Below are positions 1 through 55,088 of a stretch of 56,105 nt of DNA, one piece after another. The translations under genes and the position numbers were made by a program. Each line of letters starts with the position of its first letter. Within the stretch, counting starts at the first letter, position 1. Source of the stretch: Chitinophagales bacterium (GTDB lineage: Bacteria > Bacteroidota > Bacteroidia > Chitinophagales > BACL12). The notes under the pieces were generated by a model that saw only the letters and a program-made list of their open reading frames with translations, was not told where the DNA came from and searched no databases. The DNA lies in assembly GCA_046160675.1 (NCBI GenBank), contig JBJXHH010000076.1:1-56105 (forward strand), written 5' to 3'.

Positions 1-19
1 TCTACTCTTACCTTTTCCC

Positions 20-27: not shown

Positions 28-68
28 CATCCCCCGTCAACACATATTGTTGAACGAAACAACCCAAA

Positions 69-32010: not shown

Positions 32011-35000
32011 CTATCTCAATAAGGTTAGGTTTCCGTATGCAATTATCTTTTCACCACTTAAACAAACCGCTTCAATTGAATAAACATACACATCCTGATT
32101 GCAAAGTTTTCCCTTAGAAGTTCCATCCCAGCTTGCATATGGGTCATTTGTAGAAAATATCAGCCCGCCAAGTCTGTCAAAAATCTTATATCCTGAAACA
32201 CTTTCTAATCCTTCATATTTTATACTAAATACATCATTAAACCCATCGTTATTCGGTGTGAATAAATTGGGTATTGCGAAGAGACTCACCTCACATCCTT
32301 TTACATTAATAAAAGCGAAATCAGTGTCGGAGCAGCCAAATTGATTAGTAACGATAACACTGTAGAGTGTTGTAACATTTGGTGAAACATTAACACTTGA
32401 ACATGTATTACAGTCTATATTATAATCAGGCATCCATGCATAACTCATGGTATTTGAAGAAAAATCAGTTACAGTTGTATTTAACACAAGTGGGTCCTGG
32501 CCAATAATGTATAAAAGGGAGTCTTCAATAATATTTACAACAGGAGGGTCGTTTACAGATATATAGGCTGTATATGTTTCGATTAGGTTTCCACATGTTG
32601 CTTCCACAGTATAACTAATATCATTTGTGGGAATGCTGTATGGGTCTAACGAATAACTATCTGATAAAAATGTGGAGGGCGACCAGACATAATTAATGAA
32701 TCCTTCATTAACAGAATCTGTAAAATCAACAAACAAAGAAACAGTATCACCTATACAAATATCTGCATCAGAACCTGCAGCATTGATTAGGTTATTTATG
32801 ACAGATATTGTTGTTGATGTGTCAGAAGTACAATATCCATTATCCGCTATTACGGTGTAAGTAGTTGTGGTAATTGGCGATGCGATCGGGTCATTAATGT
32901 TTGTTGCTGAAAGGCTATCAGTTGGTGACCAGGTATAAGAAACAGCTCCATCAGCGTAAGCACTTAAAGAAACCGATAAACCGGGACAAATTGTAGTATC
33001 AGGCGAAATCATAATATCGGGATACTCAAGGGCAGTTACCAGAATTTCCATTTCATCTGTACATCCAAAAATCGTTTCAACCGTTAAGCTTGTATTATAA
33101 ACCCCAGGGTTCGTATAAACATGATTATAATTAGAGGATGAATCCGAAGAAATACTTAAATCCCCTAAATCCCAAAACCAACTTATCAGCTCATCGGGCC
33201 CCGAAGAACTATCTGTAAATGTTATCTCCTGACCAGTACAGATTGTAAGTTCTGAAACAAAATAATTTGCTGTTGGTAAGCCTCCAACTTCAATGGTATC
33301 ATTTGCGAGAAAAATATTAGAGCACCCTGCACTATCCGTAACATATGCTGAAATATAAAATGTTCCTGTATCTGAATAAATATAAGGGATTGTATATGTT
33401 GAATAAACATCTGTATAAAGTATGTCAGCATTATAAGTATTCCCATCTCCAAAAAACAATGATACTGTATCTATTGAAGCTCCATTTAAATAAAAGGAAA
33501 CGGCATCACCAATACACAAGCTATCATCGCTGATAGAAATATTCCCATAAGGGCCGGGAACGAGAGTATAACCATCTATTATGACCTCTCCGGAACACCC
33601 GTTTGTGTTTGTAATGATAACTGAAACCGTATATTCTCCAGCACTGATATATGCATGAATTGGTTCTGCTTCTGATGATGTGTAGCCATCCCCAAAATCC
33701 CATTCAAAACTTTCCAGGCTGTCAGCAGATTCAACAAAAAATTGAACTAAAGCATAGTTACAACTTGAAATCAAAATATCTGAATTGATTTCTCCCAAAA
33801 CTGTATCGGAAACAATTGATTCAAAGACTTTACTATCTGTACATCCATTAATGTCAGTAACAGTTAGAGTGACCGGGTAAGAGCCAATATCTGAATAGGA
33901 GTGAGATGGGAAACTATCCGTAGAAAAGCTGCCATCGCCAAATTCCCATGAGTAATCAATATCATAACCTGTTACTGTTTCATAAAAAAACACTTCTTCA
34001 TTAAGGCAGGGTATTGTATCTGAAATATAAAAATCTGCGAATGGTTGAGAAGCAATAATTTCAACTGTATCGTATGCAATACAACCCAACTCGTTAATTA
34101 CTGTCATAGTAACATTATAATAATTCTGAGTTGAATAGGTATGCGTCAAATCATCCACATCCGAAGCAGAATAAAATGTATCAATAGTACCATCATCCCA
34201 ATTGATTGTCCAAGATGATATATCAGCTCCTGATGAAACAGATAGATCAGAAAATTCTGCATCAAAAGGTAAACATCCCCCATAATCTGGAGTAAACAGT
34301 GAAGCGGTTATTGAACTTAAATATACGGTATCGCTTGTAAAAGCTGTACAACCTCTTGAATCTGTAATTGTCAGTTCCACAATAAATTGACCCGGAGAAA
34401 AATAAGTGTGGGTTGGATTATCTAAAGTTGAATAATACCCATCCCCAAAATCCCATTGATATGTTAATCCAGCGTCAGAAATACCGTCAGTTGAAAAATT
34501 CGAAAAATAAATTGCACCTGGCACATAACATCTCACTTCAGGTACGGCAATAAAATCAGCAACCGGTGTCTTTATAGTAACATATATTCCCAATCCCTGG
34601 CAAGGATCGGGTGTAATACAATAATAAGTCACCGTTACATGATATGTACCCGCAGCTGAATATGTGTGCGTAGGATTTAGTGATATGCTATCTGTGGTTC
34701 CGTCTCCAAAGTCCCATAACCACCCACAACTGGAATCTGCAAGTACTGGGTCTATAAATAATTCGACGGTGTAAGGATCTGTACAATTATATGTTACACT
34801 TAAGTTAGAATCATCAACATCAAGAATATGAATATCAGAAGAAATTGTATCTGTACATCCATTATTCCAAGTTATATAATCTACTGTGTGATCCCCTGGT
34901 GGAAGTGTAATAACAGTTGACGAACTAACTGGTGATGTTGACGCATAATCTAATCCACCATCAATTATTGCAGTAATAGAATCTAAAGGTAAATAATCCA

Positions 35001-36681
35001 CTTCTAACATTACTCCGGGGCAAGATGAATCAGGTATAACCAAAAGTGCAGTAAGTGTATCTCCAACACAAATCATATCATTTATATATACTGTATCACT
35101 ACAACCATTTACACTTGAGGCTATTAGCGAAACATCAGTACATCCAACAGTAGAATATAAATGAGTTGGGTTTGCGGCAGTTGAAGTTGTGCCATCCCAA
35201 AAATTCCATAAATAAGTTGTTAAAGCTTCAGAGCCGGTAGCACTAAAAGTTGTGGTTAACGGAAAACAACCTTCAGGTGGGAACGCATTTAAAACTAAAT
35301 CCAATTCACCAATTGTAACAAGGTCAGGAAGAGAATAGGTTGATATACAACCTCCTGTTGTAGATACAGTAATACTTACGTCAAAATCACCTGATTGATT
35401 CCAGGTATAAGTTGGATTTAACATTGATGAAGTAGAGGTGAATCCATCATCTTCAAATGACCATAATACTGTAGAATAACTGCCACTTATAGTAGGTGTA
35501 AAAGAAACACTGAAAGGTGTTTCGCAAACACTTGAGGGATCAGTATAAGTATATGTTACCAAAGGAGGTTCCTCAACTGTAATCAAATTCACAAAACTAA
35601 TACTGCCGCTGCATCCTCCTCCAAAATCAGCATCTAATGAAACTGTATATACACCCGGGCCGGGGTATATATGACTGGGTTCAAATAAGGTAGAAGTTGA
35701 CCCATCACCAAAATTCCAAAGCCATGAACCAGTTGATGAACCGCTCAAATTATCAAAGAATATCTCTTCACCATCGCATATAATTGTTTCTGAAGGAATA
35801 AAATTGACAATTGGGCTGGCATTTATTTGTACATAATCTGTAAATACTTCAGTATATATACATCCATTATTATCTGTAACTGTTAATGAAACATCATAAG
35901 AGCCATATGACGTATAATTATGTGATGGGCTTGTTCCAACTGAAGTAGCACCATCCCCAAAATCCCAGAGATAGGTTAGAGGTAAGACTCCAGTGCTTGT
36001 ATTTGTAAAGTTTATGTTTAATGGTGTTGCACAAGAAATAGAAGCCGTTGATGTAAAAGAGGGCTCTGGCCAATCATAAACTGTTACCTCAACGGTGGCA
36101 AAATCTTCACACCCTGCATCATCTTCAATAAATAAATAAACATAATATGTACCCGGAGTATCAAAAGTATAGGTGAGTGTGGGATCTGAAGGTAAAGTTC
36201 CCGAGCCGAAAATTACCCAGTAGTAACTACTTATTGCTCCATAAGAGCCCGGAATAGAAGTATTTGAAAATGAGGTTGTGAAGGGAGCACAACCTTCTAG
36301 GTCTGAGGCTGAAATAGAGGCTGTGGGTGGACTATGGACAGTTGCAAATGCCGGGATAGTCAAAATATCCGTCGAACCACCAGAACCTGTAGCAGTTAAG
36401 GTTACAGTATAATCACCAACTGAATACAGAAAAAAAACGGGTTCAAATAAAGTTGAACTGCCTACTAATGAGCCAGTGGGATCATAAACCTCCCAGTAAT
36501 AAGATGTGGCACCGGTTGAATTATTTATTAGGACCAATTCCAGAGATAAACATCCATCAGTTGTATCGGAACTAAAATTTGCAGAAACCTGACTATTTGC
36601 CTTTTGACCAATAGTTAGAAAAATGATCAGAAGTAAACTGATAATAACTCTACTTAAGATATTAAACTTAAAGATAGACAT
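32011..36681 (-). CDS. Large PKD-repeat surface protein with T9SS type-B (gliding-motility-associated) C-terminal domain
   Basis: Signal peptide; six WxFGDG motifs plus variants; C-terminal IPNLFTPNNDGFNDVF...IFDR.G...WDG...VYVY...GNLTLLR. Confidence 0.92.
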   Translation of the reverse strand: MSIFKFNILSRVIISLLLIIFLTIGQKANSQVSANFSSDTTDGCLSLELVLINNSTGATSYYWEVYDPTGSLVGSSTLFEPVFFLYSVGDYTVTLTATGSGGSTDILTIPAFATVHSPPTASISASDLEGCAPFTTSFSNTSIPGSYGAISSYYWVIFGSGTLPSDPTLTYTFDTPGTYYVYLFIEDDAGCEDFATVEVTVYDWPEPSFTSTASISCATPLNINFTNTSTGVLPLTYLWDFGDGATSVGTSPSHNYTSYGSYDVSLTVTDNNGCIYTEVFTDYVQINASPIVNFIPSETIICDGEEIFFDNLSGSSTGSWLWNFGDGSTSTLFEPSHIYPGPGVYTVSLDADFGGGCSGSISFVNLITVEEPPLVTYTYTDPSSVCETPFSVSFTPTISGSYSTVLWSFEDDGFTSTSSMLNPTYTWNQSGDFDVSITVSTTGGCISTYSLPDLVTIGELDLVLNAFPPEGCFPLTTTFSATGSEALTTYLWNFWDGTTSTAANPTHLYSTVGCTDVSLIASSVNGCSDTVYINDMICVGDTLTALLVIPDSSCPGVMLEVDYLPLDSITAIIDGGLDYASTSPVSSSTVITLPPGDHTVDYITWNNGCTDTISSDIHILDVDDSNLSVTYNCTDPYTVELFIDPVLADSSCGWLWDFGDGTTDSISLNPTHTYSAAGTYHVTVTYYCITPDPCQGLGIYVTIKTPVADFIAVPEVRCYVPGAIYFSNFSTDGISDAGLTYQWDFGDGYYSTLDNPTHTYFSPGQFIVELTITDSRGCTAFTSDTVYLSSITASLFTPDYGGCLPFDAEFSDLSVSSGADISSWTINWDDGTIDTFYSASDVDDLTHTYSTQNYYNVTMTVINELGCIAYDTVEIIASQPFADFYISDTIPCLNEEVFFYETVTGYDIDYSWEFGDGSFSTDSFPSHSYSDIGSYPVTLTVTDINGCTDSKVFESIVSDTVLGEINSDILISSCNYALVQFFVESADSLESFEWDFGDGYTSSEAEPIHAYISAGEYTVSVIITNTNGCSGEVIIDGYTLVPGPYGNISISDDSLCIGDAVSFYLNGASIDTVSLFFGDGNTYNADILYTDVYSTYTIPYIYSDTGTFYISAYVTDSAGCSNIFLANDTIEVGGLPTANYFVSELTICTGQEITFTDSSSGPDELISWFWDLGDLSISSDSSSNYNHVYTNPGVYNTSLTVETIFGCTDEMEILVTALEYPDIMISPDTTICPGLSVSLSAYADGAVSYTWSPTDSLSATNINDPIASPITTTTYTVIADNGYCTSDTSTTISVINNLINAAGSDADICIGDTVSLFVDFTDSVNEGFINYVWSPSTFLSDSYSLDPYSIPTNDISYTVEATCGNLIETYTAYISVNDPPVVNIIEDSLLYIIGQDPLVLNTTVTDFSSNTMSYAWMPDYNIDCNTCSSVNVSPNVTTLYSVIVTNQFGCSDTDFAFINVKGCEVSLFAIPNLFTPNNDGFNDVFSIKYEGLESVSGYKIFDRLGGLIFSTNDPYASWDGTSKGKLCNQDVYVYSIEAVCLSGEKIIAYGNLTLLR

Positions 36682-37389: not shown

Positions 37390-38739
37390 ATGGCACACTT
37401 TAAAATCTTTATTGTTGAAGACGATCCCTGGTACGGAGAATTACTTGAGTATCATATCACTCAAAATCCGGAAAATGAGGTTTTCAGGTTTACTACTGCT
37501 AAAGAATGTCTGAAAAACCTGAACATTAATCCTGACCTTATTACAATTGACTTCTCTCTACCTGACATGAATGGGGAAGAGCTGATTAAAAAAATTCAGC
37601 ATTTTAACATAGATATACCACTAATAGTAATTTCCGGTCAGGAGAATGTTTCTACCGCTGTATCACTTTTGCATAAGGGTATATATGACTATTTTGTAAA
37701 AGAAGACGGAACACTTGAACGGCTATGGAATCATGTAAATAAGATAAGAGTAAATAAAGAACAAGTAACTCAAATTACAGCTTTAAGAAGTGAACTTGGG
37801 AAAAAATACAAATTTGAAAATAATTTAAAAGGAGAGAGCCAAGCCATAAAATCGACTTTTTCATTAATAGAAAGAGCCTCGAAATCTAATATCAATGTGT
37901 CAATTTCCGGGGAAACCGGGACCGGAAAAGAATTGGTTGCAAAAGCTATTCACTATAATTCTGATAGACACAAGAAACCATTCATTGCAGTGAATATGGC
38001 TGCAATACCGAAGGATTTAATTGAAAGCGAACTTTTTGGATATGAAAAAGGAGCATTCACCGGAGCCGTTTCAAGAAAAATTGGTCGTTTTGAGGAAGCA
38101 GATAAAGGAACTTTATTCCTGGATGAAATAGGTGACCTTGATTTGAATTTACAAAGTAAATTATTAAGAGTTATCCAAGAGAAGGAACTTACTAGATTAG
38201 GAGGAAATGATGTTACAAAATTCGATGTTAGGTTAATTATAGCAACACATAAAAATCTTGCTCAAGAAGTTAGAATCGGTAATTTCAGAGAAGACCTATA
38301 TTATAGAATCATTGGCCTACCGATAGAATTAGCTCCGTTAAGAGACCGTGGAGATGATGTGATTTTACTTGCTGAACATTTTCTGGAAGAATTTACCCGT
38401 GAAAATAAACTCAGAGCTGCAAAATTAAGTGAACAGGCATTGAAAAAATTAACCCAGTATCATTTCCCCGGAAACATCAGAGAACTTAAATCAATAATTG
38501 AGATAGCAGCGGTAGTTGCTGATAACGGAATTATTAAAGAGGACGATATCCGTCTATCGAGGGTACATAATACTATGTCCATCATTCAGGAAGAAATAAC
38601 ACTCGAAGAATATAAAAAAAGAATTATTGGGCATTTTTTAAAAAAATATGATAATAACGTTTTGTTGGTTGCAAAAAAGTTGGATATCGGTAAATCTACT
38701 ATATATAATATTCTACAATCTAATTCATTATCAATATAA
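37390..38739 (+). CDS. Sigma-54-dependent response regulator (NtrC family: REC-AAA+-Fis HTH)
   Basis: IVEDD...IDFSLPD receiver; [41 protein letters not shown]; C-terminal HTH; TAGTTTTG -7 box at 37371. Confidence 0.96.
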
Positions 38740-38759: not shown

Positions 38760-39176
38760 ATGGAACATACAATTGCATCAACAAATTTGAACTTTGAATC
38801 TCGCAAAAATGACTCAATGTATGATTTAAGCAATTTGTATAAAATTGCCCGAGGAAACTCCATGTTTATAGAAAAAATGCTTACTCTTTTTTTAGCAGAA
38901 ACCACAATTATAAATAAACTCATAATTGATAACTATAAAAAACATGCATTCAATGAAGTTAAAACATTGGCACATAAATTAAAATCTAACCTGCAGGTTC
39001 TTGGTATAACAATTTTAAAAAAGCAAATATCTATAATTGAAGAAATGGATGTAAAAGATTTTGAGTTGAGAGGGTCAGACAATCATATCCACTCATTTTG
39101 TTCTTCATTAGAAGTAACACTCAATATGATACAACAAAATGAACTTGGTAAAACAAAAAATCCAATAAAAGATTAA
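38760..39176 (+). CDS. Stand-alone Hpt phosphotransfer protein
   Basis: YDLSNL...GNSMFIEKMLTLF...LAHKLKSNL with the conserved His. Confidence 0.85.
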   Translation: MEHTIASTNLNFESRKNDSMYDLSNLYKIARGNSMFIEKMLTLFLAETTIINKLIIDNYKKHAFNEVKTLAHKLKSNLQVLGITILKKQISIIEEMDVKDFELRGSDNHIHSFCSSLEVTLNMIQQNELGKTKNPIKD

Positions 39177-39345: not shown

Positions 39346-40560
39346 ATGGAAAATATGAACAGTTTAAAATTTTTTGTTGTAGATGACAATAAAGCGTATG
39401 CATATTTATTAATAAAGACTTTAGAAAATGAAGGTTTTCAAGAAATTGAATATTATGAAAGCGGAAAAAAATGTATTGAAAACTTAAATAATAAACCCGA
39501 TATTATATTGCTTGATCATCACATGCCCGGGATGACGGGTTTGGAAACACTTAAAGAAATTAAGAAGCAATTACCAGGTGTTTATGTGATTAATGTGAGC
39601 GGGCAGGAACAAACTGATATTGCTGTCGGAGCACTAAAAGCAGGGGCTTATGATTATATAATAAAAGGTGACAATGAATTTGAAGCTCTCATAGAAATAA
39701 TAAATAAAATTCGAAATATTTCAAAAACTGAAGTAAAGCATTCCCTTGTTGAAAAACATAAAACTCAACCTTATCCCAACCCCATTTCACTTTTTCAGAA
39801 AAATAAAATTGAAGGAAATCTATTCGCTTTCATACTTGCAATTACAGCCTTCATCGCTCTTTCCTCATGTTCAACACAAAATTTACTCACTCAAGCATCA
39901 ACCAAATCAAAAGATGCTGATGATTTAATAAATAACAATACTCCATCTGCTTATACCATTCAACAAGGAGATAAACTAAGTGTAAGTATTTGGGATCATG
40001 ATGATTTAAGTGTAGGTTCCATTTTCACAATCTACAATTCCAACGAAGTTTATGGTAAATGGTTACAGGTAGATCCTGATGGAAATATTGCATTACCGGG
40101 GATCGGAACCACAAAAGTTGAAGGATTATCATTAACTGATTGCGAAAAGCACTTATCAGAATTGTATAAAAACACAATTGTAAATCCGTTAATTGAAATT
40201 CGAGTATTGAATTGGGAAGCATCTGTTTTAGGCGAGGTTCGGAATCCCGGAAACATTTCATTGGAAAACGAAAAGCAAATTTTACTTGAGGTCATCGCAC
40301 TTGCCGGAGATTTTGAACCTTATGCTGATAAAAAAAATGTAAAGGTGGTGAGAATGCAAGATGGAAACACGATTGAATACAATATCAATCTTGTACAACT
40401 GGAATCTGAGCTGCAAAGTAAACTTTTCATTTATCCCGGTGATATAATATATATCCCTTCACGTAAAGGGAAAATATTGGATATCAAATCACAATCACTA
40501 ATTCCTATAGCTTCGGTTTTGACCGCTGCTGCCATTTTATATTCAACACTCAATAAATAA
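39346..40560 (+). CDS. Receiver domain fused to a Wza-like polysaccharide export lipoprotein
   Basis: Residues 1-125 form an intact REC (VVDD, LLDHHMP, VSG, IK); internal hydrophobic helix and LSSC lipobox (Cys175); YTIQQGDKL, VDPDGNIALPGIG, VLGEVRNPG, PGDIIYIP Poly_export/SLBB motifs. Confidence 0.85.
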   Translation: MENMNSLKFFVVDDNKAYAYLLIKTLENEGFQEIEYYESGKKCIENLNNKPDIILLDHHMPGMTGLETLKEIKKQLPGVYVINVSGQEQTDIAVGALKAGAYDYIIKGDNEFEALIEIINKIRNISKTEVKHSLVEKHKTQPYPNPISLFQKNKIEGNLFAFILAITAFIALSSCSTQNLLTQASTKSKDADDLINNNTPSAYTIQQGDKLSVSIWDHDDLSVGSIFTIYNSNEVYGKWLQVDPDGNIALPGIGTTKVEGLSLTDCEKHLSELYKNTIVNPLIEIRVLNWEASVLGEVRNPGNISLENEKQILLEVIALAGDFEPYADKKNVKVVRMQDGNTIEYNINLVQLESELQSKLFIYPGDIIYIPSRKGKILDIKSQSLIPIASVLTAAAILYSTLNK

Positions 40561-40571
40561 AACTAATTGAC

Positions 40572-42806
40572 ATGACTGAATATCAAAAAAATATTAAAAT
40601 TATTTCCCCTGTAATAAAAGGAATTCCGATAATAATCATTTGTATTGGAGCAGCCTTCTGGCTTGGGAATCAATATTTAAAATATTGTACCCCGGAATAT
40701 GAAAGTACAGCTGAGATCAAACTGGCGGATATTCAAGATGGCCCGTCAAGCAGCAATCTGTTCAAAGATTTTGATGTATTTGTCCAATCAAATAAAATTC
40801 AGGAGGAGGTTGCCACCATTAAATCACATATGATAGCCGATCGAGCATTGGATAAATTACAAATGTATAGGACAAATTGTTATAGAATCGGGGATATTAA
40901 GACTACCAACCTGTATAAAGAGTCGCCGTTTATTGTAAAGTTTTCAGAAAATAATTCCCATTTTTTTGATAAATCATTTCCGATTTCAATTGATATAAAT
41001 GAACGTTTTATATTGACTGATGTAACTGATAATAACAGAAAATACAACGGAAAACTAGGAAATGAATTGAAGCTTAAACATGGAACCCTATCTATTCTGA
41101 AAAACGAGGAGTTGTTCAATAAAAAGAAAAACATTGACCTTGCTGATAATTATTCCTTTATAATATACAACAGGGAAAGTCTCATCTCGAATATTATGAA
41201 TGGCTTAGACGTAACATCGATAGATAAAGATGTTGCTGTTTTGCGATTATCTTATAGAAGCGATGTTCCGGAGGAAGCAGCGGATGTTGTAAATGCTGTT
41301 GCGGAGGCATACATGGATGATTATGTGCAAAATAAAATTGAAGCAGCAGAACTCACAGTTAAATTTATTGATGAACAAATAGCATCCATTTCCGCACAGT
41401 TATCAGGTAGTGAAAACACAATAGAGTCTTTCCGAGATGCAAATAATATTATCAATATCAACCAACAAACAGAAACAGATTTGCGCAAAATTGCTGAAAT
41501 GAAAATTCAGATGTCAAATCTGCAAATGAATATAGCTGGAGTTGACACTTTAGTAAACTACCTGGAAAAAAATAAAAATGATTTTCATTCTACAGCCCCG
41601 AATTTCCAGGCTTACAATGATTTACTTTCAACTCAACTTGTCAAACAATTAAAGGAGCTAGAAGCTGAAAAGAAAGACTTACTACTAAAGTATACACCGG
41701 ATAATCAGAAAATAAAAGTCCTGGATGACAAGATGCAGGATATTACTGATTATATTATTGAAAGCGCAAAAAACACTCAAATAAATTTAAAAGCTAAATA
41801 CGATGAAACCTATTCGGCAATTTCGCAATCTGAAAGTGCATTTATTGGATTGCCCGCAAAGGAAAAACAATTAAGTATATATGAAAGGTACTTTAACCTC
41901 AATGAGAAAATGTACAATTTCCTAAATGAAAAAAAGATGGAAGCCGAAATCGCAAAAGCGGCATCAATTACTTTTCATCGCATAATAGAACCGGGAATTG
42001 TATCCAATGTTCCGGTTTCTCCTAATCGCTTATTTGTTCTTGCCCTTTTCATATTTATTGGGATCGTCATTAGCATCATTAGCATTTACATTTGGGATTC
42101 ATTTAAACCCGGTATTAGAAATTCTGATAAAGTAGAAAAGAATTCTAATATTCCATTTGGGGGTAAATTAAAATTATTATTTCCTAAAGAAGTTTTTCCA
42201 GCATTTAGAAAATTTTTATTTGACCTCAAGTTTAAGGGCGTAATAAACCACGGTAATACAGTTTGTATAAGTTCATATGGTCCAAAAACAGGAAAATCAT
42301 TTATTGCAAATTACTTGTCAGAAACCTTTGTAGAGGAAAACTTCCTAACCCTGTTTATTTCCTGCGATAATTCAGAATCCGGGTTAGACGAGATGAAAAA
42401 TTATACCGAAATGCCGGATAATTATTTAGCATGCAATAAACTACATGAATTAAGAATATCAGAAAGTGATATTCTTACACATAAATTTGAACAAATGTTA
42501 CCGTTTATTCAACATCGGTTCCAGGCAATTATTATTGATTGTTTTTCGATTTCAAATTCTGTTGCTGCCATCGGCTTAATGCGCCAGAGCCATCAAAATA
42601 TGATCGTTCTTGATTCATTTAAATCAAACCTCACTCATCTTCGGGAACTTGAAATCATATGTCTACAGTATCAAATTAGAAATCCATTTATCATACTAAA
42701 TAGAGAAGGTGCTTCAAGAATTGATGTCCTAAGATTTAATCTCGCTTCAGTTAAACAAAAACTGCCTCAGCCATCATTTCGTCCACAACTATCCCCGACT
42801 CACTAA
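40572..42806 (+). CDS. wzc: Wzc/GumC-like polysaccharide co-polymerase with degenerate kinase domain
   Basis: Two TMs, PEYESTA, long coiled coil, PVSPNR, Walker-A-like GPKTGKS; no C-terminal Tyr cluster. Confidence 0.85.
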   Translation: MTEYQKNIKIISPVIKGIPIIIICIGAAFWLGNQYLKYCTPEYESTAEIKLADIQDGPSSSNLFKDFDVFVQSNKIQEEVATIKSHMIADRALDKLQMYRTNCYRIGDIKTTNLYKESPFIVKFSENNSHFFDKSFPISIDINERFILTDVTDNNRKYNGKLGNELKLKHGTLSILKNEELFNKKKNIDLADNYSFIIYNRESLISNIMNGLDVTSIDKDVAVLRLSYRSDVPEEAADVVNAVAEAYMDDYVQNKIEAAELTVKFIDEQIASISAQLSGSENTIESFRDANNIININQQTETDLRKIAEMKIQMSNLQMNIAGVDTLVNYLEKNKNDFHSTAPNFQAYNDLLSTQLVKQLKELEAEKKDLLLKYTPDNQKIKVLDDKMQDITDYIIESAKNTQINLKAKYDETYSAISQSESAFIGLPAKEKQLSIYERYFNLNEKMYNFLNEKKMEAEIAKAASITFHRIIEPGIVSNVPVSPNRLFVLALFIFIGIVISIISIYIWDSFKPGIRNSDKVEKNSNIPFGGKLKLLFPKEVFPAFRKFLFDLKFKGVINHGNTVCISSYGPKTGKSFIANYLSETFVEENFLTLFISCDNSESGLDEMKNYTEMPDNYLACNKLHELRISESDILTHKFEQMLPFIQHRFQAIIIDCFSISNSVAAIGLMRQSHQNMIVLDSFKSNLTHLRELEIICLQYQIRNPFIILNREGASRIDVLRFNLASVKQKLPQPSFRPQLSPTH

Positions 42807-42807: not shown

Positions 42808-44058
42808 ATGAAGAGGCTCATGCACAATCATAAACTACTTGTAGTAACTGACCAGTGTATTATAAGCGGTACAAATTTCATTACCGGAATATTTCTAGCA
42901 AAATTTTTAGGGTCAGAGCTTTTTGGAGTTTTTGCATTTTCATGGTTAATTCTTTTGATCATGATGTCATTCCAATTCAGCTTTTTCATTCAACCCATGC
43001 AAATATTATTAGCCAGGCTTACTATAATAAAACAAAAAGAATATTTAGGCAATGTACTTTATTTACAAATATTTTGGGCATTGAGTGCAGGAAGTATAGC
43101 TGCATTGCTTATTCATTTTAGCAACCTGAATCAGGTAAATAACAAATTCATATTAGCAACGATGATTACAGTAACTGCTACCCTATGCCAGGATTATATC
43201 CGACGAACCTATATCATCAAAAATAAATTATTAAATGCAGTTATCCATGATAGTTTTGTTAGCATTTTACAACTACTTTCGTTAATCATTATTTATTTCA
43301 CACAGGCATCCTTACCTTTTTGTTTATTCGCAATAGGTTGCAGCTACATACCCTCTGTTATTGTTGGGATTTATAAAAGCGAGAGGTCTAAATTAATTTT
43401 TTCAGAAATTAAATCAACCTTCATTAAAAACTGGGGTTATTCAAAATGGCTTGTTGCTACATCAACTTTGCAGATATTTTCAGGGAACTACTTATTATTG
43501 TTAGCTCCCAGTTATCTTGGGGTTGCAGTATTGGGTTCAATACGGCTTGCTCAAAATTTAATAGGAATTCTCAATGTAGTATTACAGGCCTTTGATAACT
43601 ATGTTCCTGTTACAGCTGCAAAACTCTACTCAGTAGAAACGAATAAATCTTATAAGTATTTAACTAAAATCAGTTTACAAGCTGCTGCTTTGATTTTCAC
43701 TATTCTGATACTTGTTTATATGACTGCAAGTCCTATTTTCTCCATTTCCGGTGGTTCCTCTTATGAAGGAAACGCATACATACTTCAAGGATTTTGTTTT
43801 GTCTATTTTTTCATGTTTGCAGGATATCCAATGAGGATTTTACTCCGTTTACAAGAAAGAACCCATCATATATTTATTGCTTATGTTCTAGCCTCAGTTT
43901 CAAATTTAGCATTTGCAAAATATATTCTTGAGAATTTTGGAGTAATCGGTTTACTGGTTTCGCTTTCAGCTATACAATGCATCATGCTTATTTATATGTC
44001 TTTAGTATTACTCATCAACAAAAAACAACATGCGAATTATTCATTGCATATTAGGTAA
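42808..44058 (+). CDS. wzx: Wzx-like flippase
   Basis: Multi-TM; DQCIISGTNF...LGSELFG start typical of polysaccharide flippases; locus context. Confidence 0.8.
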   Translation: MKRLMHNHKLLVVTDQCIISGTNFITGIFLAKFLGSELFGVFAFSWLILLIMMSFQFSFFIQPMQILLARLTIIKQKEYLGNVLYLQIFWALSAGSIAALLIHFSNLNQVNNKFILATMITVTATLCQDYIRRTYIIKNKLLNAVIHDSFVSILQLLSLIIIYFTQASLPFCLFAIGCSYIPSVIVGIYKSERSKLIFSEIKSTFIKNWGYSKWLVATSTLQIFSGNYLLLLAPSYLGVAVLGSIRLAQNLIGILNVVLQAFDNYVPVTAAKLYSVETNKSYKYLTKISLQAAALIFTILILVYMTASPIFSISGGSSYEGNAYILQGFCFVYFFMFAGYPMRILLRLQERTHHIFIAYVLASVSNLAFAKYILENFGVIGLLVSLSAIQCIMLIYMSLVLLINKKQHANYSLHIR

Positions 44059-45148
44059 GGCAAACCCTGAACGAATGAACGGTGTTAACCGTGTTGTTAA
44101 TGAATTAGCAACTAAACAACAACAGGCAAATAAAAATGTTGAAGTATGGGGGATATCAAAAAACATAGAACATAACTACCCGGAAAGAACATTTAGTACA
44201 AGGTTATATAAAGAAGCTGTTTTACAATTTATTGTACCTCGAAAGTTGAAAAAGGATATTTTACAATTAGATGCATCTGAAACAATTTTCCACCTCCATG
44301 GCGGATTTATTCCGTTGTATCCTGCTTTAGTTAGAACTCTAAGAAAAAAAAGTATTCGTTATATAATTACTCCCCATGGAGCATATAATAAATTAGCACT
44401 AAATAAAAATCCCTTTATCAAAAAGATATATACACAGTTATTTGAAAAAACCATTCTTAGGCATGCACACTATATTCACTGCCTGGGCAAAAGTGAAACA
44501 GACATAATTAAAACATTTATTGCACCAGAAAAAATAAAAGTAATTCCTTATGGATTTGAACAACCTGTAAATTCAGATTTAGAAACACACCAAAAAAATA
44601 AAAGCCTGGTATTTGGATATTGTGGCCGCATAGATATACATACAAAGGGATTGGATCTATTAATGCAAGGGTTTGCTAATTTTTTAACACAATCAAAAGC
44701 TGATGCATATTTAAACATTATCGGCGGGGGAACTGAATTACCTAGATTAACCGCACTTGCATCAGCCTTGGGAGTTGCAGATAAAGTTATTTTTTCCGGA
44801 GCTAAATATGGTAAAGAAAAATTTACGCTCTTACAAGAGATGGATGTTTTCTTTCACCCATCTCGAAACGAAGGGTTGCCCACCGCAGTTTTAGAAGCTA
44901 GTATGCTTGGAATTCCATGTGTTTTAAGTGAAGAGACAAACATGGGGGAATATATCAGGAAATCCGGTTGCGGAATCATGTTAGAAAGAAACGATGCGAA
45001 CACAATTCAAAATACAATGGCATTATTCCATCAACAAAAACAAATAAATGCTTTGCATAAAACTCATACTGAAAAGATTAAGAAACTTGCAGAATTTTTT
45101 AATTGGAAAACCATAATTCCGCAATTTGAAAAATTATATTTAGGATGA
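44030..45148 (+). CDS. GT4 glycosyltransferase
   Basis: ITPHG, GRIDIHTKGLD, PSRNEGLPTAVLEA (EX7E). Confidence 0.92.
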   Translation: MRIIHCILGKANPERMNGVNRVVNELATKQQQANKNVEVWGISKNIEHNYPERTFSTRLYKEAVLQFIVPRKLKKDILQLDASETIFHLHGGFIPLYPALVRTLRKKSIRYIITPHGAYNKLALNKNPFIKKIYTQLFEKTILRHAHYIHCLGKSETDIIKTFIAPEKIKVIPYGFEQPVNSDLETHQKNKSLVFGYCGRIDIHTKGLDLLMQGFANFLTQSKADAYLNIIGGGTELPRLTALASALGVADKVIFSGAKYGKEKFTLLQEMDVFFHPSRNEGLPTAVLEASMLGIPCVLSEETNMGEYIRKSGCGIMLERNDANTIQNTMALFHQQKQINALHKTHTEKIKKLAEFFNWKTIIPQFEKLYLG

Positions 45149-46437
45149 TAAACAATGTAAATACAGTCAATCATCAAGGTTTTACAAAGCTTTATTTGTT
45201 GCTATTGTTTGTCTTTTGCATCCATTTAGCCGGGTTTTTTAGCTGGAATGAGAATGTATTAATTACCCGTATCCTAAAACTGTGCATGCGAACTTCCATG
45301 ACTTTTCTGTTGCTAGGAATTTATTATCGCTTAAAAATTAAAGGTTTAGTCCCATCATTTCGATATGAGAATTCATTCGTACTTATTTTTTATGGCCTCT
45401 ATCTTCTATTAGGTTTATTTTCATTTTTATGGTCATCAGATCCTCTTTACTCAGCACTACAGTGGTTTATGGATATTCAGGTTTTACTATTTGCTTTTTA
45501 TTTGATGCAAATATTAATAATTATCAAGGCATATTACCCGCAGAATAAAATAAATATATCTCGTTTAATTTCTGATTCTTCATTTTTCATTCTTCTGATA
45601 TTCATTGTTGGTAAATTTCTTTTACCCTCCACTTTTTACAGAATGACACATGGAGGTGAGTTGGCCAGGCTCGGAGGATGGATGATGAATCCGAATGAAT
45701 TAGGGATGCTTTGTGCAGTTGGAGTGAGCTGTTCATTGTATAACATGATAACATTTAAAAAATATATTTTCTCTTTATGTAAAATTTGTATACTCATATA
45801 TGCACTTTTTCTAACGGGGTCAAGGTCTTCTCTTATTGGTTTAATTCTTATTATTCTGTTTTATATTCTTACATCAAAACAGAGGATACTAAAGACAATA
45901 TCAATAACAATTCTGGTTATCGGTATTCCATTTATTGTACAATATTTATTTTTAAATCAGGGAGGATGGGAGGAAATTTTCAGTTTAACCGGTAGGATCC
46001 CATTTTGGAATGCGCTAATCACAGAAGGCTTACCTAAAGAACCTATCTGGGGTTATGGGTTTATGCGTATAGCTTATGAAGATTCTTTCCAAGGAGTACA
46101 TACATATGCAGGGCAGATGACACATAATACTTTCTTACAGGTACTAATGAATCTAGGGCTTGTTGGCTTTTTTATTGTACTTCTCCAACTCACATTCACA
46201 ATCAGGGCATTTTATCATCTCAAAGAGAAAAAAGAAAAACTAATGCTGATGGGGCTTAGCATACCAATACTAATTAATTCATTTACCGAATTCGGAATAT
46301 TTGGTGAAAACAATTTTGGTATACTATTCTATTATTTAATCTTATTTTCTCTATGTATAAAATACAACCCAAAACTGACTCTCAAAGAAAAATTGGTTGA
46401 AGAGAGGCATTTTCCATCAAGAACCATTCTGGCCTAG
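45145..46437 (+). CDS. Wzy polymerase / O-antigen ligase family protein
   Basis: Multi-TM; RLGG..MNPNELG, LTGSRSS, LTGRIPFW, PIWGYG, HNTFLQ. Confidence 0.88.
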   Translation: MINNVNTVNHQGFTKLYLLLLFVFCIHLAGFFSWNENVLITRILKLCMRTSMTFLLLGIYYRLKIKGLVPSFRYENSFVLIFYGLYLLLGLFSFLWSSDPLYSALQWFMDIQVLLFAFYLMQILIIIKAYYPQNKINISRLISDSSFFILLIFIVGKFLLPSTFYRMTHGGELARLGGWMMNPNELGMLCAVGVSCSLYNMITFKKYIFSLCKICILIYALFLTGSRSSLIGLILIILFYILTSKQRILKTISITILVIGIPFIVQYLFLNQGGWEEIFSLTGRIPFWNALITEGLPKEPIWGYGFMRIAYEDSFQGVHTYAGQMTHNTFLQVLMNLGLVGFFIVLLQLTFTIRAFYHLKEKKEKLMLMGLSIPILINSFTEFGIFGENNFGILFYYLILFSLCIKYNPKLTLKEKLVEERHFPSRTILA

Positions 46438-46473: not shown

Positions 46474-46534
46474 AAAAACTTAAACCCTATTATTAAAAGT
46501 GCTTATTTCACTAGGCTTTCAGGCCATTCAGACC

Positions 46535-46551
46535 TTGGTATATTATATGCA
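46535..46551 (+). promoter_or_regulatory. Sigma-54 -24/-12 promoter
   Basis: TTGGTATATTATATGCA: GG at 46537, GC at 46549 (GG-N10-GC). Confidence 0.65.
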
Positions 46552-46576
46552 AAACTTATATTACGTACACACACAC

Positions 46577-49045
46577 ATGTTAACCGGCTCCGAATATTTT
46601 ACAAAATCTTTTCTCAGTAACCACTTCTTTCCGGAACCTACCGAAGGAAATAAAATTGAATTGCATTTCATCAAAAATCCGGATAAATCGATACGCTGGA
46701 TTTACCCAGCAAAATTAACAGAACCTCTCTTTCTCAAATTTTACAATGCCGCTACAATAAAAAGTAAAATATATGCATTTCTGGTCGAAATTGTTTTCCT
46801 GCTTCGATTAAATCGGTTCCTAAAAAGCGGAAGCATTTTTACAGAAGCTTCCCATATTAAAAATCTGCTTGGAAGCGATTTAAGCAATACCGCTTGGGCA
46901 CTCTTCACGGGAACAATAGGTCCCGGGAGAAAGTTAATTTCAGTTACAAAAAGTAAAAAAGGGATCTATTATTTTACTAAACTAGCAATAACTGAAAAAA
47001 GCAAACTTGATTTAGAAAATGAAATTACAGCATTACAATATATACATAGTATTAACCTAAAAGATATTCAAGTTTCAAAAATAAAGATTTTAGATTCTGA
47101 TAGTTGCAAATTCACAGATCTGAAATCGAAAGGTGCATTCAGAACTCCTTACCTGACTCAACAGCATGTTCATGCGATAATAGATTTACAATCTTCAACA
47201 ATAAACACGACATATGCAAAGTCGGAATTTTGGAAGGAAATTTCGTTGCGCATTTCGAACCTAAAAAATACTCAGTCAAAAATACCAACCGATCTAATAG
47301 GCAAAGTTGAGCAGCTCCAAAATCAACTGAAAAGCAATAATGAATTTCAATCGTATTTTGCTCACGGAGATTTTACACCCTGGAATTTATATGTTACAAA
47401 ACATAATATAGCCCTTTATGATTGGGAGTTAGCTGGTTTTCAGCCCATATTATTTGATTTATTTCACTTTATATGTCAATCCGGTATATTGTTACAAAAG
47501 AAAAATTATGTTTCTTTAAGAAAAGAAATTGATACTTTTATAAACACTTGTACCGAAGATACTCGTCTGAATAATTCAGGCCTTCAACCCCGCATTTATT
47601 TTGGCCTTTATTTATTAAGTATAACAACTTATTACATAAACATCTACAATACTCAAGAAAAGTGGCATACGCAAGTGTATTGGCTTCTTTCGTTTTGGGA
47701 AAAAGCTTTATCAGAAGAAATTGCATACTACTCAAAAAAGAAGTACAGGGAAATATTTTTGCCAGAATTCTTTTCGCATTTGCGCAATTCCAGGTATGCA
47801 TTTTTGAAATTTCATTATTCGAATATTGAAGACATTCCAATAACTTCCGATATTGATCTTGTTGTTGAAAAATCCGAAATAGAAACTGTAAATAAATTCA
47901 TCGCACAGCATGTATTAGTTAAAAAATTGAACATCGTAAAGAATTCTATGATGGCAAATTTTGAAATATTTTTCCGGGATGGAAGTATGCTTAGCGTCGA
48001 CTTAATTCATAGCATCAGGCGGAAAAATGTTGTAATGTTGGAAGCGAATTCTGTTTTAGATTCTGCAATTGTTAATGAATCGGGTATAAAAGTAGCATCA
48101 AAAATAAATGACCTACTGTACACCTGGTTATTTTATATTCTAAATGATTCTAATATTCCGGATAAATATATAGTACGATATGCACAGCTCTATAATATAG
48201 AACTGCAAAAACTCATGCAAGAATTTGAATCTATTCTTCATTTACGAGAAAGTAATTTGTGTGATATTTTTACTAATTCAAATCTACATGCCAGCAAAGC
48301 AAAAATTTACTTAAAGACTTTAAGAGAAAATCATGGAATACAAAAATTGAAAAATAGTATTCAATATTTCAGGGATATAATCAAGAATTTAAGTTTTAAT
48401 AAAAAAGGGCTTACAATAACATTTAGCGGAGTTGATGGTTCCGGTAAATCAACAGTGATTCAGGAAACACAAAAACTATTAGAAAAAAAATATAGACGAA
48501 AAGTAGTAGTCATTAGACACCGTCCAGGTATATTACCTATCTTAAGCGCCTGGAAATATGGGAAAAAAGAAGCCGAAACCAGGGCTACACATCAATTACC
48601 AAGAAAAGGAAAAAATACCAGTAAATCTCTCTCCTTACTCCGCTTTAGCTATTATTACTTGGATTTTATACTAGGCCAGTTTTATGTTTGGTTTAAATAT
48701 ACTGCTCAGGGGTACATTGTTTTATATGACAGGTACTATTTTGATTTCATAAATGACCCGAAGCGTTCAAATATAAATTTATCTTCTTCATTTATTAAAA
48801 AGTTTTATGCCGCCATCTTTAAACCTAAACTCAATTTCTTTTTATATGCCCCTGCAGATGTTATTATTTCCAGAAAACAAGAATTGTCTAAAGAAGATAT
48901 AATAGATCTGACTGAAAAATACAACGGTCTTTTTCAAAACTTTCAAAAGAAATATAACCGTTCTGCGTATATAAGTATACAAAATATTGAACTTGAAAAA
49001 ACCTTGCAAACTATTTTATCAAATTATCAAAATTCGTTAGAATGA
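46577..49045 (+). CDS. Three-domain protein: APH-like phosphotransferase + nucleotidyltransferase-like + thymidylate-kinase-like P-loop
   Basis: HGDFTPWN...YDWE...FDLFHF; SDIDLVV...VDL; FSGVDGSGKST...YDRY. ATG at 46577 preferred (ORF open to 46499) because of the promoter and leader motif. Confidence 0.8.
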   Translation: MLTGSEYFTKSFLSNHFFPEPTEGNKIELHFIKNPDKSIRWIYPAKLTEPLFLKFYNAATIKSKIYAFLVEIVFLLRLNRFLKSGSIFTEASHIKNLLGSDLSNTAWALFTGTIGPGRKLISVTKSKKGIYYFTKLAITEKSKLDLENEITALQYIHSINLKDIQVSKIKILDSDSCKFTDLKSKGAFRTPYLTQQHVHAIIDLQSSTINTTYAKSEFWKEISLRISNLKNTQSKIPTDLIGKVEQLQNQLKSNNEFQSYFAHGDFTPWNLYVTKHNIALYDWELAGFQPILFDLFHFICQSGILLQKKNYVSLRKEIDTFINTCTEDTRLNNSGLQPRIYFGLYLLSITTYYINIYNTQEKWHTQVYWLLSFWEKALSEEIAYYSKKKYREIFLPEFFSHLRNSRYAFLKFHYSNIEDIPITSDIDLVVEKSEIETVNKFIAQHVLVKKLNIVKNSMMANFEIFFRDGSMLSVDLIHSIRRKNVVMLEANSVLDSAIVNESGIKVASKINDLLYTWLFYILNDSNIPDKYIVRYAQLYNIELQKLMQEFESILHLRESNLCDIFTNSNLHASKAKIYLKTLRENHGIQKLKNSIQYFRDIIKNLSFNKKGLTITFSGVDGSGKSTVIQETQKLLEKKYRRKVVVIRHRPGILPILSAWKYGKKEAETRATHQLPRKGKNTSKSLSLLRFSYYYLDFILGQFYVWFKYTAQGYIVLYDRYYFDFINDPKRSNINLSSSFIKKFYAAIFKPKLNFFLYAPADVIISRKQELSKEDIIDLTEKYNGLFQNFQKKYNRSAYISIQNIELEKTLQTILSNYQNSLE

Positions 49046-53477: not shown

Positions 53478-54590
53478 ATGAATTATATTTACTCAGCGTT
53501 AACCATTATTGCCCCCCTAATAATACTTTCTTTTATCGGTGTTCGGCTTTTGGTTCCCAAAATAATTGCTTACGCATTTAACAATAACCTAACTGATAAA
53601 CCTAATGACAGAAAAGTTCATCATAATGCAATTCCCAGGTTGGGAGGAATTGCATTCGGAGGCACCCTCCTACTTATTTTTACCGGTTATGTAATACTTG
53701 ATGGAAGCCTTGGTTCGTTAGCTACACTGATTGCTTTGAGTCTCATTTTTATTACCGGCCTTATGGATGATATTAAAGAAATAAAAGCAAAAAAGAAATT
53801 TGTAATTCAAATTGTAGCCGCAGTAATTATAGCATCAGAAGGAATCCGCATTACACATTTATGGGGCCTGTTTGGTATCAATGAACTCAGTATTTTCTAT
53901 CAATATGTAATAACCGTTATTATACTTGTAGGTATTACAAATTCTTTTAATTTAATTGATGGAATAGATGGCCTTGCTGCCGGAATTGGTTTGATAAATT
54001 CATTTGCACTGGGATGTATGGCTTTTTATGCCTCCTTCACGGAAATTGCAGTTCTGAATTTCACTTTGGCAGGAGGGCTTTTTGCTTTTTTGTTTTTCAA
54101 CTTCAACCCCGCAAAAATTTTTATGGGAGACAGCGGATCCACCCTCATTGGTTTTTTAATGGGTGTTTCTGCCTTATATCTTGCTACCCATCATGAAAGT
54201 TTTCAAACTATAAATGTACCCATTGCTATGTTTGGTATTTTATTATTGCCTGTCTTTGATACAATAAGAATTCTTGTTGAGCGAATAATAAGAGGCGTTT
54301 CGCCGTTCACTGCTGAAAAGAATCACATTCATCATCTGCTTTTAGAAACAGGGTTAAATCATAAGAAATCTTCCATTATTTTATACATATCGAATATTCT
54401 TATTATCATTTTCTCAATGTTTATTCAGCAGATTGTGAGCATGACGGATGCTATAATTTTAACCTTCACTTTTGGAATTTTACTTTTTGAGGCTTGTACA
54501 ATCAAAAACATCTTATATTCCAAAAAAACAAGGCTTAAAAACATGCTTAATTTAATTGAACTGGAAAGGGAAAATACACTTATAAAATAA
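53478..54590 (+). CDS. wecA: WecA/TagO-like undecaprenyl-phosphate HexNAc-1-phosphate transferase
   Basis: DKPNDRKVH..IPRLGG, GLMDD, NLIDGIDGLA, IFMGDSGS, HIHH. Confidence 0.88.
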   Translation: MNYIYSALTIIAPLIILSFIGVRLLVPKIIAYAFNNNLTDKPNDRKVHHNAIPRLGGIAFGGTLLLIFTGYVILDGSLGSLATLIALSLIFITGLMDDIKEIKAKKKFVIQIVAAVIIASEGIRITHLWGLFGINELSIFYQYVITVIILVGITNSFNLIDGIDGLAAGIGLINSFALGCMAFYASFTEIAVLNFTLAGGLFAFLFFNFNPAKIFMGDSGSTLIGFLMGVSALYLATHHESFQTINVPIAMFGILLLPVFDTIRILVERIIRGVSPFTAEKNHIHHLLLETGLNHKKSSIILYISNILIIIFSMFIQQIVSMTDAIILTFTFGILLFEACTIKNILYSKKTRLKNMLNLIELERENTLIK

Positions 54591-54599: not shown

Positions 54600-55088
54600 A
54601 TGAAAACAGAAATACTTTTAATTGACAAAAATGCTGATTTCTCTGAAAACATTGCATCCTTACTCTCTAACAATTTTACTAAGGATGTTCAGGTTTATAA
54701 TTCTCTTGAAGAAATGCCAGAGAAAAGTCCCGACGTAAAACGGATTGTTATTTATATTATGACTGTACCGCCGGACACAAACTATCATCATCAGCATATT
54801 GAAGAAAAAAGAAAGTCTCTGGCGTTTGATTATATTATAGTACTTACAAAAGAAAATACAATCAAGTCTGCTCTCAACTTTATAAAAGCAGGTGCAATTG
54901 ACTGCATTGAATTAGACGAAAAATTCTACGCAAAGCTAGATGATACATTAACAAATGTTTTTAAGTTCATGTCATTAAAGGAGAACATCAATACAATAGA
55001 CTCAAAATTGGATATCAGGTCAAGGCAACTAATTGGATCCATATCTCTAACCATTTTACTTATCACATTAGCATTTTTGATGTTTTAA
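54600..55088 (+). CDS. Degenerate receiver-like protein with C-terminal TM helix
   Basis: ILLIDKN and IIVLT...ALNFIKAGAIDCIE follow the REC pattern; phospho-Asp absent (IVIYIM); hydrophobic C-terminus. Confidence 0.6.
   Translation: MKTEILLIDKNADFSENIASLLSNNFTKDVQVYNSLEEMPEKSPDVKRIVIYIMTVPPDTNYHHQHIEEKRKSLAFDYIIVLTKENTIKSALNFIKAGAIDCIELDEKFYAKLDDTLTNVFKFMSLKENINTIDSKLDIRSRQLIGSISLTILLITLAFLMF

Follow-up and report, generated by a model that had tools for sequence, protein, structure and literature searches.

We examined the gene at positions 39346 to 40560 of a 56,105-nucleotide stretch of DNA, hereafter the window, which is taken from contig JBJXHH010000076.1 of the Chitinophagales bacterium assembly GCA_046160675.1. 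This one gene encodes a response-regulator receiver domain (REC) followed by a Wza-like lipoprotein of the outer membrane polysaccharide export (OPX) family. It is a natural in-frame fusion of two adjacent genes, one for a membrane-associated receiver and one for a short Wza-like lipoprotein exporter, and most likely the fusion is undone after translation, with lipoprotein processing turning its product into two proteins. A preliminary description, made from the letters of the window, had claimed a REC with all its catalytic residues, a linker, a hydrophobic helix, the motif LSS-C175 and a Wza-like domain, and each of these elements is borne out by Pfam, by alignment and by the DNA itself (Table 1). 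The database counterpart of the protein (P0001) has 401 residues; the gene caller placed its start 3 residues further in, which is of no consequence here.

Table 1. Features of the fused gene and of the genes around it (window coordinates; residues are those of the fused protein; AF2, AlphaFold2)
Feature	Coordinates	Residues	Strand	Basis
NtrC-type response regulator (REC plus sigma-54 AAA+ activator), first gene of the regulatory block	37390..38739		+	Sigma54_activat E 3.1e-69; Response_reg E 3.6e-16
Stand-alone Hpt-like protein, 138 aa	38760..39176		+	Pfam Hpt E 1.2e-3, 19.5 bits
Fused REC::OPX gene, 404 aa including the start	39346..40560		+	Single open reading frame without internal stop; stop codon 40558-40560
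Receiver (CheY-like) domain	39367..39720	8-125	+	Pfam, AF2, Foldseek, invariant residues
Linker	39721..39813	126-156	+	AF2; comparison with split-locus junctions
Internal lipoprotein signal peptide: h-region and lipobox L-S-S-C175	39814..39870		+	AF2 helix 157-173; motif match
Predicted mature OPX (Wza-like) lipoprotein	39868..40557	175-404	+	phmmer against PDB; Foldseek
Poly_export (PES) domain	39937..40206		+	Pfam
Single SLBB domain	40222..40455		+	Pfam SLBB_2
C-terminal hydrophobic helix, candidate Wza_C-like outer membrane-spanning helix	40471..40551	376-402	+	AF2
Polysaccharide co-polymerase (PCP; Wzc-like), 744 aa, with degenerate bacterial tyrosine kinase (BY-kinase)-like cytoplasmic domain	40572..42806		+	Pfam Wzz, GNVR
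Polytopic membrane protein, 416 aa, probable Wzx-type flippase	42808..44058		+	ESM Atlas feature matches 0.99 (a lead only)
Wzy-type polymerase	45145..46437		+	Pfam Wzy_C E 2.6e-18
WecA/MraY-type initiating phosphoglycosyl transferase (PGT)	53478..54590		+	Pfam Glycos_transf_4 E 3.3e-40

The receiver half is a canonical receiver. The Pfam Response_reg profile covers residues 10-109 (E 2.5e-22; 79.6 bits against a cut-off of 30.2), and D13, D14, D57, Y104 and K107 never vary across the 33 aligned fused proteins described below, at least 90% of which also keep S85. In an AF2 model built from 33 homologues (mean predicted local distance difference test score, pLDDT, 82.5), residues 10-125 form a (beta-alpha)5 fold with pLDDT >90, which Foldseek aligns with the receivers of CheY, CpxR and PmrA (target-normalised TM-score, TMt, 0.83-0.91); the receiver half also matches those of NtrC proteins. 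The alpha-5 helix is extended and reaches residue 138. Residues 137-154 are a low-confidence linker stretch (pLDDT <50), and the model continues with a helix at 157-173, a poorly ordered segment at 174-187, the exporter domains at 188-375 and a terminal helix at 376-402.

With one SLBB domain and a C-terminal helix, the exporter half belongs to the OPX family. Poly_export is matched at residues 198-287 (E 1.5e-18; 67.2 bits, cut-off 28) and SLBB_2, marginally, at residues 293-370 (27.6 bits, cut-off 27); the presence of at least one SLBB domain is also supported by a structural match to domains D1 and D2 of Wza. Residues 201-373 match residues 63-232 of Escherichia coli Wza (2J58) in a phmmer search of the PDB (E 7.5e-15), and the half aligns with Wza 7xfd (Foldseek TMt 0.74). 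The sequence match ends at about residue 373-374, before the predicted terminal helix, which is kept in all 33 aligned fused proteins and in unfused relatives. In PMC9603273, Class-1 OPX proteins are described as Poly_export-SLBBn-Wza_C, with residues 326-359 of 2J58 as the outer membrane-spanning Wza_C helix. On the model, the window's exporter would be a Class 1 or Class 3 OPX protein, with helix 376-402 as a candidate Wza_C. Like E. coli Wza, the paradigm of Class 1, it has Poly_export (D1) followed by SLBB (D2), a lipobox and a C-terminal helix, but Wza has two SLBB domains and a mature length of ~359 aa, whereas the window's protein has one SLBB domain, ~230 aa and a 174-residue N-terminal extension that contains the receiver.

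The junction, read from the DNA, runs ..PISLFQKNKIEGN-LFAFILAITAFIAL-SS-C175-STQNLL. The helix LFAFILAITAFIAL leads into S-S-C175, whose Cys codon is TGT at 39868-39870, and the wider context, KNKIEGN-LFAFILAITAFIA-L-S-S-C175, fits the lipobox pattern; the consensus is [LVI][ASTVI][GAS]C after a hydrophobic h-region that is preceded by basic residues. The preliminary description had found no stop and no in-frame ATG, GTG or TTG just before the helix, only ATT, and a codon-by-codon reading agrees: codons 130-175 hold no such start between receiver and helix, the last upstream methionine is M63, and the sole near-start codon ahead of the helix is the ATT at 39808, 13 codons before the lipobox. 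In all 16 of the unfused relatives read, the exporter starts with the N-terminal pattern 'MK..h-region..[SG]-C-x-T-Q-N-[LIM]-[FLM]'. Because residues 158-181 of the window's protein carry this same motif, the internal segment is the exporter's own lipoprotein signal peptide, now lying mid-chain. When the linker is compared with the receivers of split loci, which end in ..LLSIF*, it seems to hold a remnant of the old REC tail (..PISLF) followed by the translated former stop and intergenic spacer (QKNKIEGN).

Is this fusion found elsewhere? The preliminary description had proposed looking for Response_reg plus Poly_export in other genomes. Our search of 5.8 billion proteins scored 7999 candidates, 991 of them with E <=1e-3, and 36 of the best 120 matches carry both domains (the window's protein, P0002-P0035 and P0068). 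The 35 others are 374-445 aa long and 34-50% identical to the window's protein over 95-100% of the query; since they come from other contigs and share the architecture, the fusion is more than chance. The remaining 84 of the best 120 consist of the exporter domains only (226-269 aa). In the databases the fused proteins are named just 'response regulator' or 'polysaccharide export protein', and full-text searches of open-access papers and bioRxiv found no description of a REC-OPX fusion or gene pair. We aligned the window's protein with 32 of the 35 others (alignment A1; P0009, P0017 and P0020 were left out). The reading frame is open across the junction in all 33, and the two nearest relatives, 50% and 47% identical and from other sources, have the same fusion. 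The source genome is a fragmented assembly of 246 contigs, and 13 listed sequencing runs from 6 studies, none of them of RNA, contain the stretch or part of it. Among Logan contigs of 4 runs, to which X4 contributed none on the stretch, those from another study (X9) are identical to the window over 39398-39778 and 39916-40409 and differ by one letter over 40437-40620; positions 39779-39915 are uncovered, so the junction itself lies outside this read support. Taken together with its relatives, the fusion is real and conserved, and not an artefact.

The lipobox Cys is kept in 32 of the 33 aligned fused proteins, and wherever it is present the residue at -1 is S, A or G. It is missing solely in P0068, which has ..PLISQA-QHSIL.. 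at the place of the lipobox (alignment A1, columns ~255-270), a sequence suggestive of signal peptidase I cleavage ahead of a Gln at +1. A Bacteroidetes 'Q-rule' is reportedly the subject of a published paper. Summed within fused-only clades of the tree described below, the branch length over which the Cys has been retained is ~7.6 substitutions per site, for which a neutral site would survive with a probability of ~5e-4 (a crude figure that relies on a midpoint root). On this comparison of sequences, we regard the lipobox as under selection. The uncharged run before the Cys has a median of 17 residues in fused proteins (n=33) versus 14 in split ones (n=72; Mann-Whitney p 3e-7, uncorrected for relatedness and with two rows mis-parsed).

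The origin of the fusion becomes clearer from loci in which the halves are separate. We scanned one genome per species, kept 80 of 308 relatives and ran hidden Markov models of both halves over the stop-to-stop frames of these loci. Six of the 80 are fused (L004, L005, L015 of the cultured Phnomibacter sp. MR, L016, L021 and L035), and in the other 74 a separate REC-only gene lies directly upstream of the OPX gene, usually with 0-30 nt from its stop to the first ATG. A second scan, of metagenome contigs, used an alignment of the exporter only; 80 of 163 relatives were kept, and the 8 without upstream room were set aside. Only 2 of the 72 informative loci carry the fusion. REC and OPX are separate genes in 66, sharing a frame at 17 loci and using different frames at 49, and the remaining 4 lack an upstream receiver. 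A REC thus lies directly upstream of the OPX in 68 of 72, with ~3% fused; the gene pair is nearly universal for this exporter type, and the fusion is rare. Programmed read-through or frame coupling, suggested by a shared frame in 64 of the 74 split genome loci, was dropped as a ranking artefact of the fused query, as just 17 of the 66 split loci share a frame in the OPX-chosen sample, with no frame enrichment.

Split modules of this kind occur, for example, in Flavobacterium hungaricum (L013), Pedobacter sp. KBW06 (L006) and Chryseobacterium spp. (L029/L030), each with a REC gene, a ~250-aa lipoprotein OPX and a PCP. Both halves of the window's protein are orthologous to them (37-47% identity, tblastn), and the order REC-OPX-PCP-flippase, the signal peptide and the motif after the Cys are the same. 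The difference is that in these genomes a stop and a few to tens of bases separate the genes and the REC has its own amphipathic or transmembrane (TM) tail, whereas in the window the stop is gone and the signal is internal. The preliminary description had expected a stop between the domains in relatives to undo its reading. Most relatives do have that stop, yet the fusion stands, and within the window's own clade there is none.

We concatenated the two halves for 113 rows, of which 39 are fused and 74 split, and inferred a maximum-likelihood tree (short IQ-TREE search with the Shimodaira-Hasegawa-like approximate likelihood ratio test, SH-aLRT, as the only support measure). The tree needs 12 changes between fused and split states, and well-supported branches make at least 7 of them unavoidable. 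One fused clade (SH-aLRT 100) unites the window's protein with P0002 and P0003, on end branches of 0.35-0.55 substitutions per site, and two larger fused clades have 9 and 14 rows. Single fused proteins (P0004, P0010, P0012, P0032, P0033 and P0035) still have the old OPX-start Met. A canonical start before the helix is missing in the window, P0002 and P0003, and because none precedes the helix, the exporter of this clade should be exportable only as part of the precursor. From the tree and the scanned loci, we read the fusion as a rare, recurrent derivative of a widespread REC-OPX-PCP module in Bacteroidota. Four loci are labelled Synechococcus, Bosea, Halioglobus and Rhizobium (L004, L007, L041 and L082) and have a Bacteroidota-type locus placed among Bacteroidota rows; they are probably mis-binned contigs of metagenome-assembled genomes rather than gene transfers.

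The separately encoded receivers give a hint of what the receiver half of the fused protein might become. Among 125 distinct separate RECs, 102 have a short basic-hydrophobic tail of the type KPxF[LI]KK[LF][LF]S[IF]F and 23 end in a TM-like hydrophobic helix (13 of 53 in the OPX-chosen sample). By this sequence comparison, all separate RECs end in a predicted membrane-binding tail, and the receiver would be membrane-associated in every form. If the fused precursor were cut before C175, it would leave a receiver, a linker and a C-terminal membrane helix, an arrangement like that of the TM-tailed separate RECs. The window's own genome has two more modules of hybrid kinase, Hpt (fused or separate) and receiver, at L176 1453-4054 (+ strand) and L177 586-2840 (- strand). 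Their receivers are 168-170 aa long with a TM-like C-terminal helix, and neither adjoins an exporter; the source organism seems to have a broader family of stand-alone receivers with a tail anchor.

Genes upstream of the fusion suggest where its receiver may obtain phosphate. The Hpt gene lies 170 nt upstream of the fused gene, and its product matches the C-terminal Hpt part of the PAS-hybrid kinases that relatives encode ahead of REC (phmmer 20-45 bits; in the L012 kinase, residues 906-1019 align with window positions 38802-39143). It is the probable phosphodonor to the receiver, judging by sequence. In 36 of the 80 genome loci, the 6 kb upstream contain a same-strand match to Hpt, mostly within a protein of 950-1270 aa. 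All 4 of the large upstream proteins scanned are PAS/GAF-HisKA-HATPase_c-Response_reg hybrid kinases, 2 of them with a Pfam Hpt match. Because hybrid kinases and Hpt domains lie upstream, the module is predicted to be a His-Asp-His-Asp phosphorelay whose last member is the small receiver beside the export genes. The window's Hpt protein stands alone with no kinase adjacent, and three related hybrid kinases are encoded elsewhere in the genome. The NtrC-like gene that opens the regulatory block (NCBIfam ntrC-like match, below equivalog cut-offs) has a same-strand counterpart no more than 6 kb upstream at 16 of 80 genome loci. A scan for the sigma-54 promoter consensus gave 9 matches versus 14 expected by chance, with none between 36682 and 39346.

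Downstream, the locus has the parts of a Wzx/Wzy pathway. The PCP gene starts 11 nt after the fused gene, and a PCP is downstream of the OPX in 79 of 80 genome loci; the window's PCP has an NCBIfam Wzc-like match below cut-off. In alignment A2, made of 42 of 72 full-length PCPs and the window's own (n=43), the Walker A Lys is kept in 24 and the Walker B Asp in 12, and just three proteins, those of L042, L074 and L075, have a Tyr-rich C-terminus, with 5-7 Tyr among the final 30 residues. The window's PCP reads GPKTGKS and ..IIID.., with 0 Tyr in its last 30 residues. The flippase-like protein after it has no Pfam or NCBIfam match, and a gene of this kind follows the PCP in all 70 genome loci that have at least 3.6 kb downstream. 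A GT4 glycosyltransferase and further transferases are also in the downstream locus, and the initiating transferase has an NCBIfam ECA_wecA match (155.9 bits) below cut-off. With a PCP, a Wzy, a Wzx-like protein and a PGT in the locus, the exporter stands where OPX proteins are expected, beside a PCP in a Wzx/Wzy or ABC pathway.

How might such a chain be used? We think it fairly probable that Lgt and LspA process it into an outer membrane lipoprotein exporter and an inner membrane-tethered receiver, and that an Hpt relay feeds this receiver, which tunes the Wzx/Wzy pathway post-translationally; here both the cleavage and the target are what we infer. The precursor would insert into the inner membrane through its internal signal peptide (~157-174), with REC in the cytoplasm and the OPX part translocated. 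C175 would be lipidated by Lgt and, judging by its conservation, signal peptidase II (LspA) would cut just before it; both enzymes are encoded in the genome. By homology, the lipidated exporter (175-404) would move to the outer membrane and form an export channel together with the PCP. The N-terminal product, consisting of REC, linker and former signal-peptide helix, would remain as a tail-anchored inner membrane receiver, like the separate ones of relatives. The adjacent Hpt protein would phosphorylate it at D57, and phosphorylated REC would tune polysaccharide assembly or export post-translationally at the cytoplasmic face of the membrane. By analogy with EpsW and EpsZ of Myxococcus, candidate partners are the PCP pseudokinase domain, Wzx and the initiating transferase; the PCP cytoplasmic domain is an attractive candidate because it is a mostly degenerate BY-kinase-like domain. 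A complex prediction for PCP residues 512-744 with REC residues 1-136 scored 0.00 and 0.00, which carries no weight for or against binding. Wzc in Proteobacteria is controlled by a tyrosine-kinase cycle, and a more ambitious version of the cleavage model, which we regard as unlikely in its entirety, would have LspA split the precursor into an outer membrane exporter and an inner membrane receiver anchored by the spent signal peptide, with this receiver, fed by a PAS hybrid kinase and Hpt, switching the combined PCP, flippase and polymerase machinery, so that in these Bacteroidota a His-Asp relay replaces the Wzc-type tyrosine-kinase cycle.

Several observations make cleavage the favoured fate. 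The lipobox has been kept throughout the fused-only clades, and P0068, which alone among the fused proteins has lost the Cys, carries ..SQA-Q.. in its stead, resembling a site for signal peptidase I. The halves are separate proteins in nearly all relatives, which need no covalent link, and the fusion has been gained or lost repeatedly, as expected of a change with little effect. On the other side of the balance, the cleavage is deduced from sequence, and the targets of REC are candidates proposed by analogy. The signal is not N-terminal in the precursor, since a folded cytoplasmic domain comes first and the Cys stands at residue 175; for this reason the gene is not a canonical lipoprotein precursor, and lipoprotein-like processing of it is an inference. 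To our knowledge, no signal peptidase II substrate has been documented in which a folded cytoplasmic domain of ~150 residues precedes the signal peptide, and a full-text search of open-access papers and bioRxiv for internal lipoprotein signal peptides found nothing relevant. The n-region KNKIEGN has a net charge of only ~+1, and the longer uncharged run of the fused proteins would also suit a permanent TM anchor, such that its length does not discriminate between the cleaved and the uncleaved model. The Pfam Hpt match falls short of its cut-off (24.6 bits). Finally, we sampled 30 genomes across the genus, family and order of the source organism. None has the fused form, and this OPX type is present in only 2 of the 30, one of them with a split pair, so the locus is patchily distributed.

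These points have to be set against what other explanations would require. The preliminary description had offered two outcomes, cleavage with a tethered receiver and an uncleaved protein that couples phosphorylation to export; the conserved Cys, the shared signal peptide and the usual separation of the halves favour the former and weaken the latter. If uncleaved, the product would be a bitopic inner membrane protein with REC in the cytoplasm and OPX tethered in the periplasm, and phosphorylation would be signalled along the helix, affecting the exporter itself or the way it docks with the PCP. Internal signal-anchor sequences often stay uncut, the fusion has been stable over deep divergence in three clades, and the hydrophobic run of 17 rather than 14 residues, like the predicted 17-residue helix, could span a membrane. 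However, an uncut anchor needs neither the Cys nor the small residue at -1 that 32 of 33 proteins retain, and a covalent link is dispensable where the halves are separate genes, as in most OPX-chosen loci. With at least 7 to 12 gains or losses, the fusion looks more like a nearly neutral change than like a novel device for signalling across the membrane, and, going by the architecture of Wza, the ~13 poorly ordered residues at 174-187 would be short for an exporter that has to reach the outer membrane. We therefore consider a permanently uncleaved protein unlikely. A cleaved but unanchored receiver is more doubtful still. Signal peptides are normally cleared after cleavage, and if signal-peptide peptidases clipped the helix, REC would become soluble or be degraded, and the fusion would be silent or would equalise the amounts of REC and OPX. 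This would fit the 102 separate RECs that have a short amphipathic tail in place of a TM helix and the six fused proteins with the old OPX Met, which look like recent stop losses, but the 23 TM-tailed separate RECs and the two TM-tailed paralogues of the same genome imply that tethering is normal in the family, and the h-region is longer in fused forms.

Another idea is that the exporter is translated alone from a non-canonical internal start such as the ATT at 39808, with the long product as a minor by-product. The position of that codon ahead of the lipobox would suit this idea, and some fused relatives retain a Met in frame immediately ahead of the helix. A canonical start at this place is missing from the window, P0002 and P0003, though, and none of the 33 aligned proteins has a stop or frame break between the halves despite identities of 34-50%, which together make independent initiation very improbable. 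Least probable of all, and only slightly behind it, is that the fusion reflects a fault of assembly or sequencing, or a mutation that recently disabled a locus in decay. This explanation has in its favour the 246-contig assembly, the uncovered junction and the lack of the fused form in the 30 related genomes. Against it, the nearest relatives are fused alike in a fully supported clade, the conserved residues of both halves are all intact, as is the remainder of the Wzx/Wzy locus, and another study's contigs agree on either side of the junction, with the one different letter well downstream.

If cleavage does occur, the fused gene would show, in nature, two functional proteins arising through one internal lipoprotein signal peptide, with the spent peptide reused as an anchor, and it would bear on what Lgt and LspA can accept. 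The FbcH cytochrome b/c1 precursor of Bradyrhizobium japonicum is a polyprotein that is cut at an internal signal peptide. There too, one gene with an internal signal peptide gives two functional membrane-associated products after the action of a signal peptidase; the differences are that FbcH is cut by signal peptidase I into subunits of one complex, whereas for the window we propose signal peptidase II and products bound for different membranes. The repeated gain or loss of the fusion is a natural experiment, indicating that the halves tolerate being one chain. If the fusion is functionally silent, it would be an ordinary stop-loss event in a regulated exopolysaccharide (EPS) locus.

The fusion has also newly exposed a module of REC, short OPX and PCP in many Bacteroidota, usually behind a PAS hybrid kinase. 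In Myxococcus xanthus, according to a 2025 report (PMC12802240), EpsW is a single-domain response regulator, and EpsW~P activates the EPS Wzx/Wzy pathway post-translationally by binding the initiating transferase EpsZ. The likeness lies in a stand-alone receiver encoded with a Wzx/Wzy pathway and, in Myxococcus, a kinase or phosphorelay upstream and post-translational control. EpsW acts on a large monotopic PGT, whereas the window's PGT is of the polytopic WecA/MraY type and its REC is membrane-tailed and lies beside OPX and PCP; the likeness is drawn here as an analogy. The REC-OPX-PCP module points to two-component, post-translational control of polysaccharide export that parallels EpsW-EpsZ with different partners.

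Three further genes of the window deserve mention. Within the polysaccharide locus, the 848-aa product of 46499-49045 has an APH-type phosphotransferase match (E 3.9e-7) and a thymidylate-kinase-like P-loop match (E 1.4e-6); candidate roles are phosphorylation of a sugar and modification of the polymer. The 162-aa product of 54600-55088, where the locus ends, has a weak FixJ-type receiver match (NCBIfam E 7.3e-4) and no Pfam match; it may be a second, divergent receiver. On the - strand, 32011-36681 encodes a protein of 1555 aa in which 11 stretches match PKD_4 and a further domain is CHU_C, a sorting signal for type IX secretion; the protein marks the genome as that of a Bacteroidota member with a type IX secretion system.

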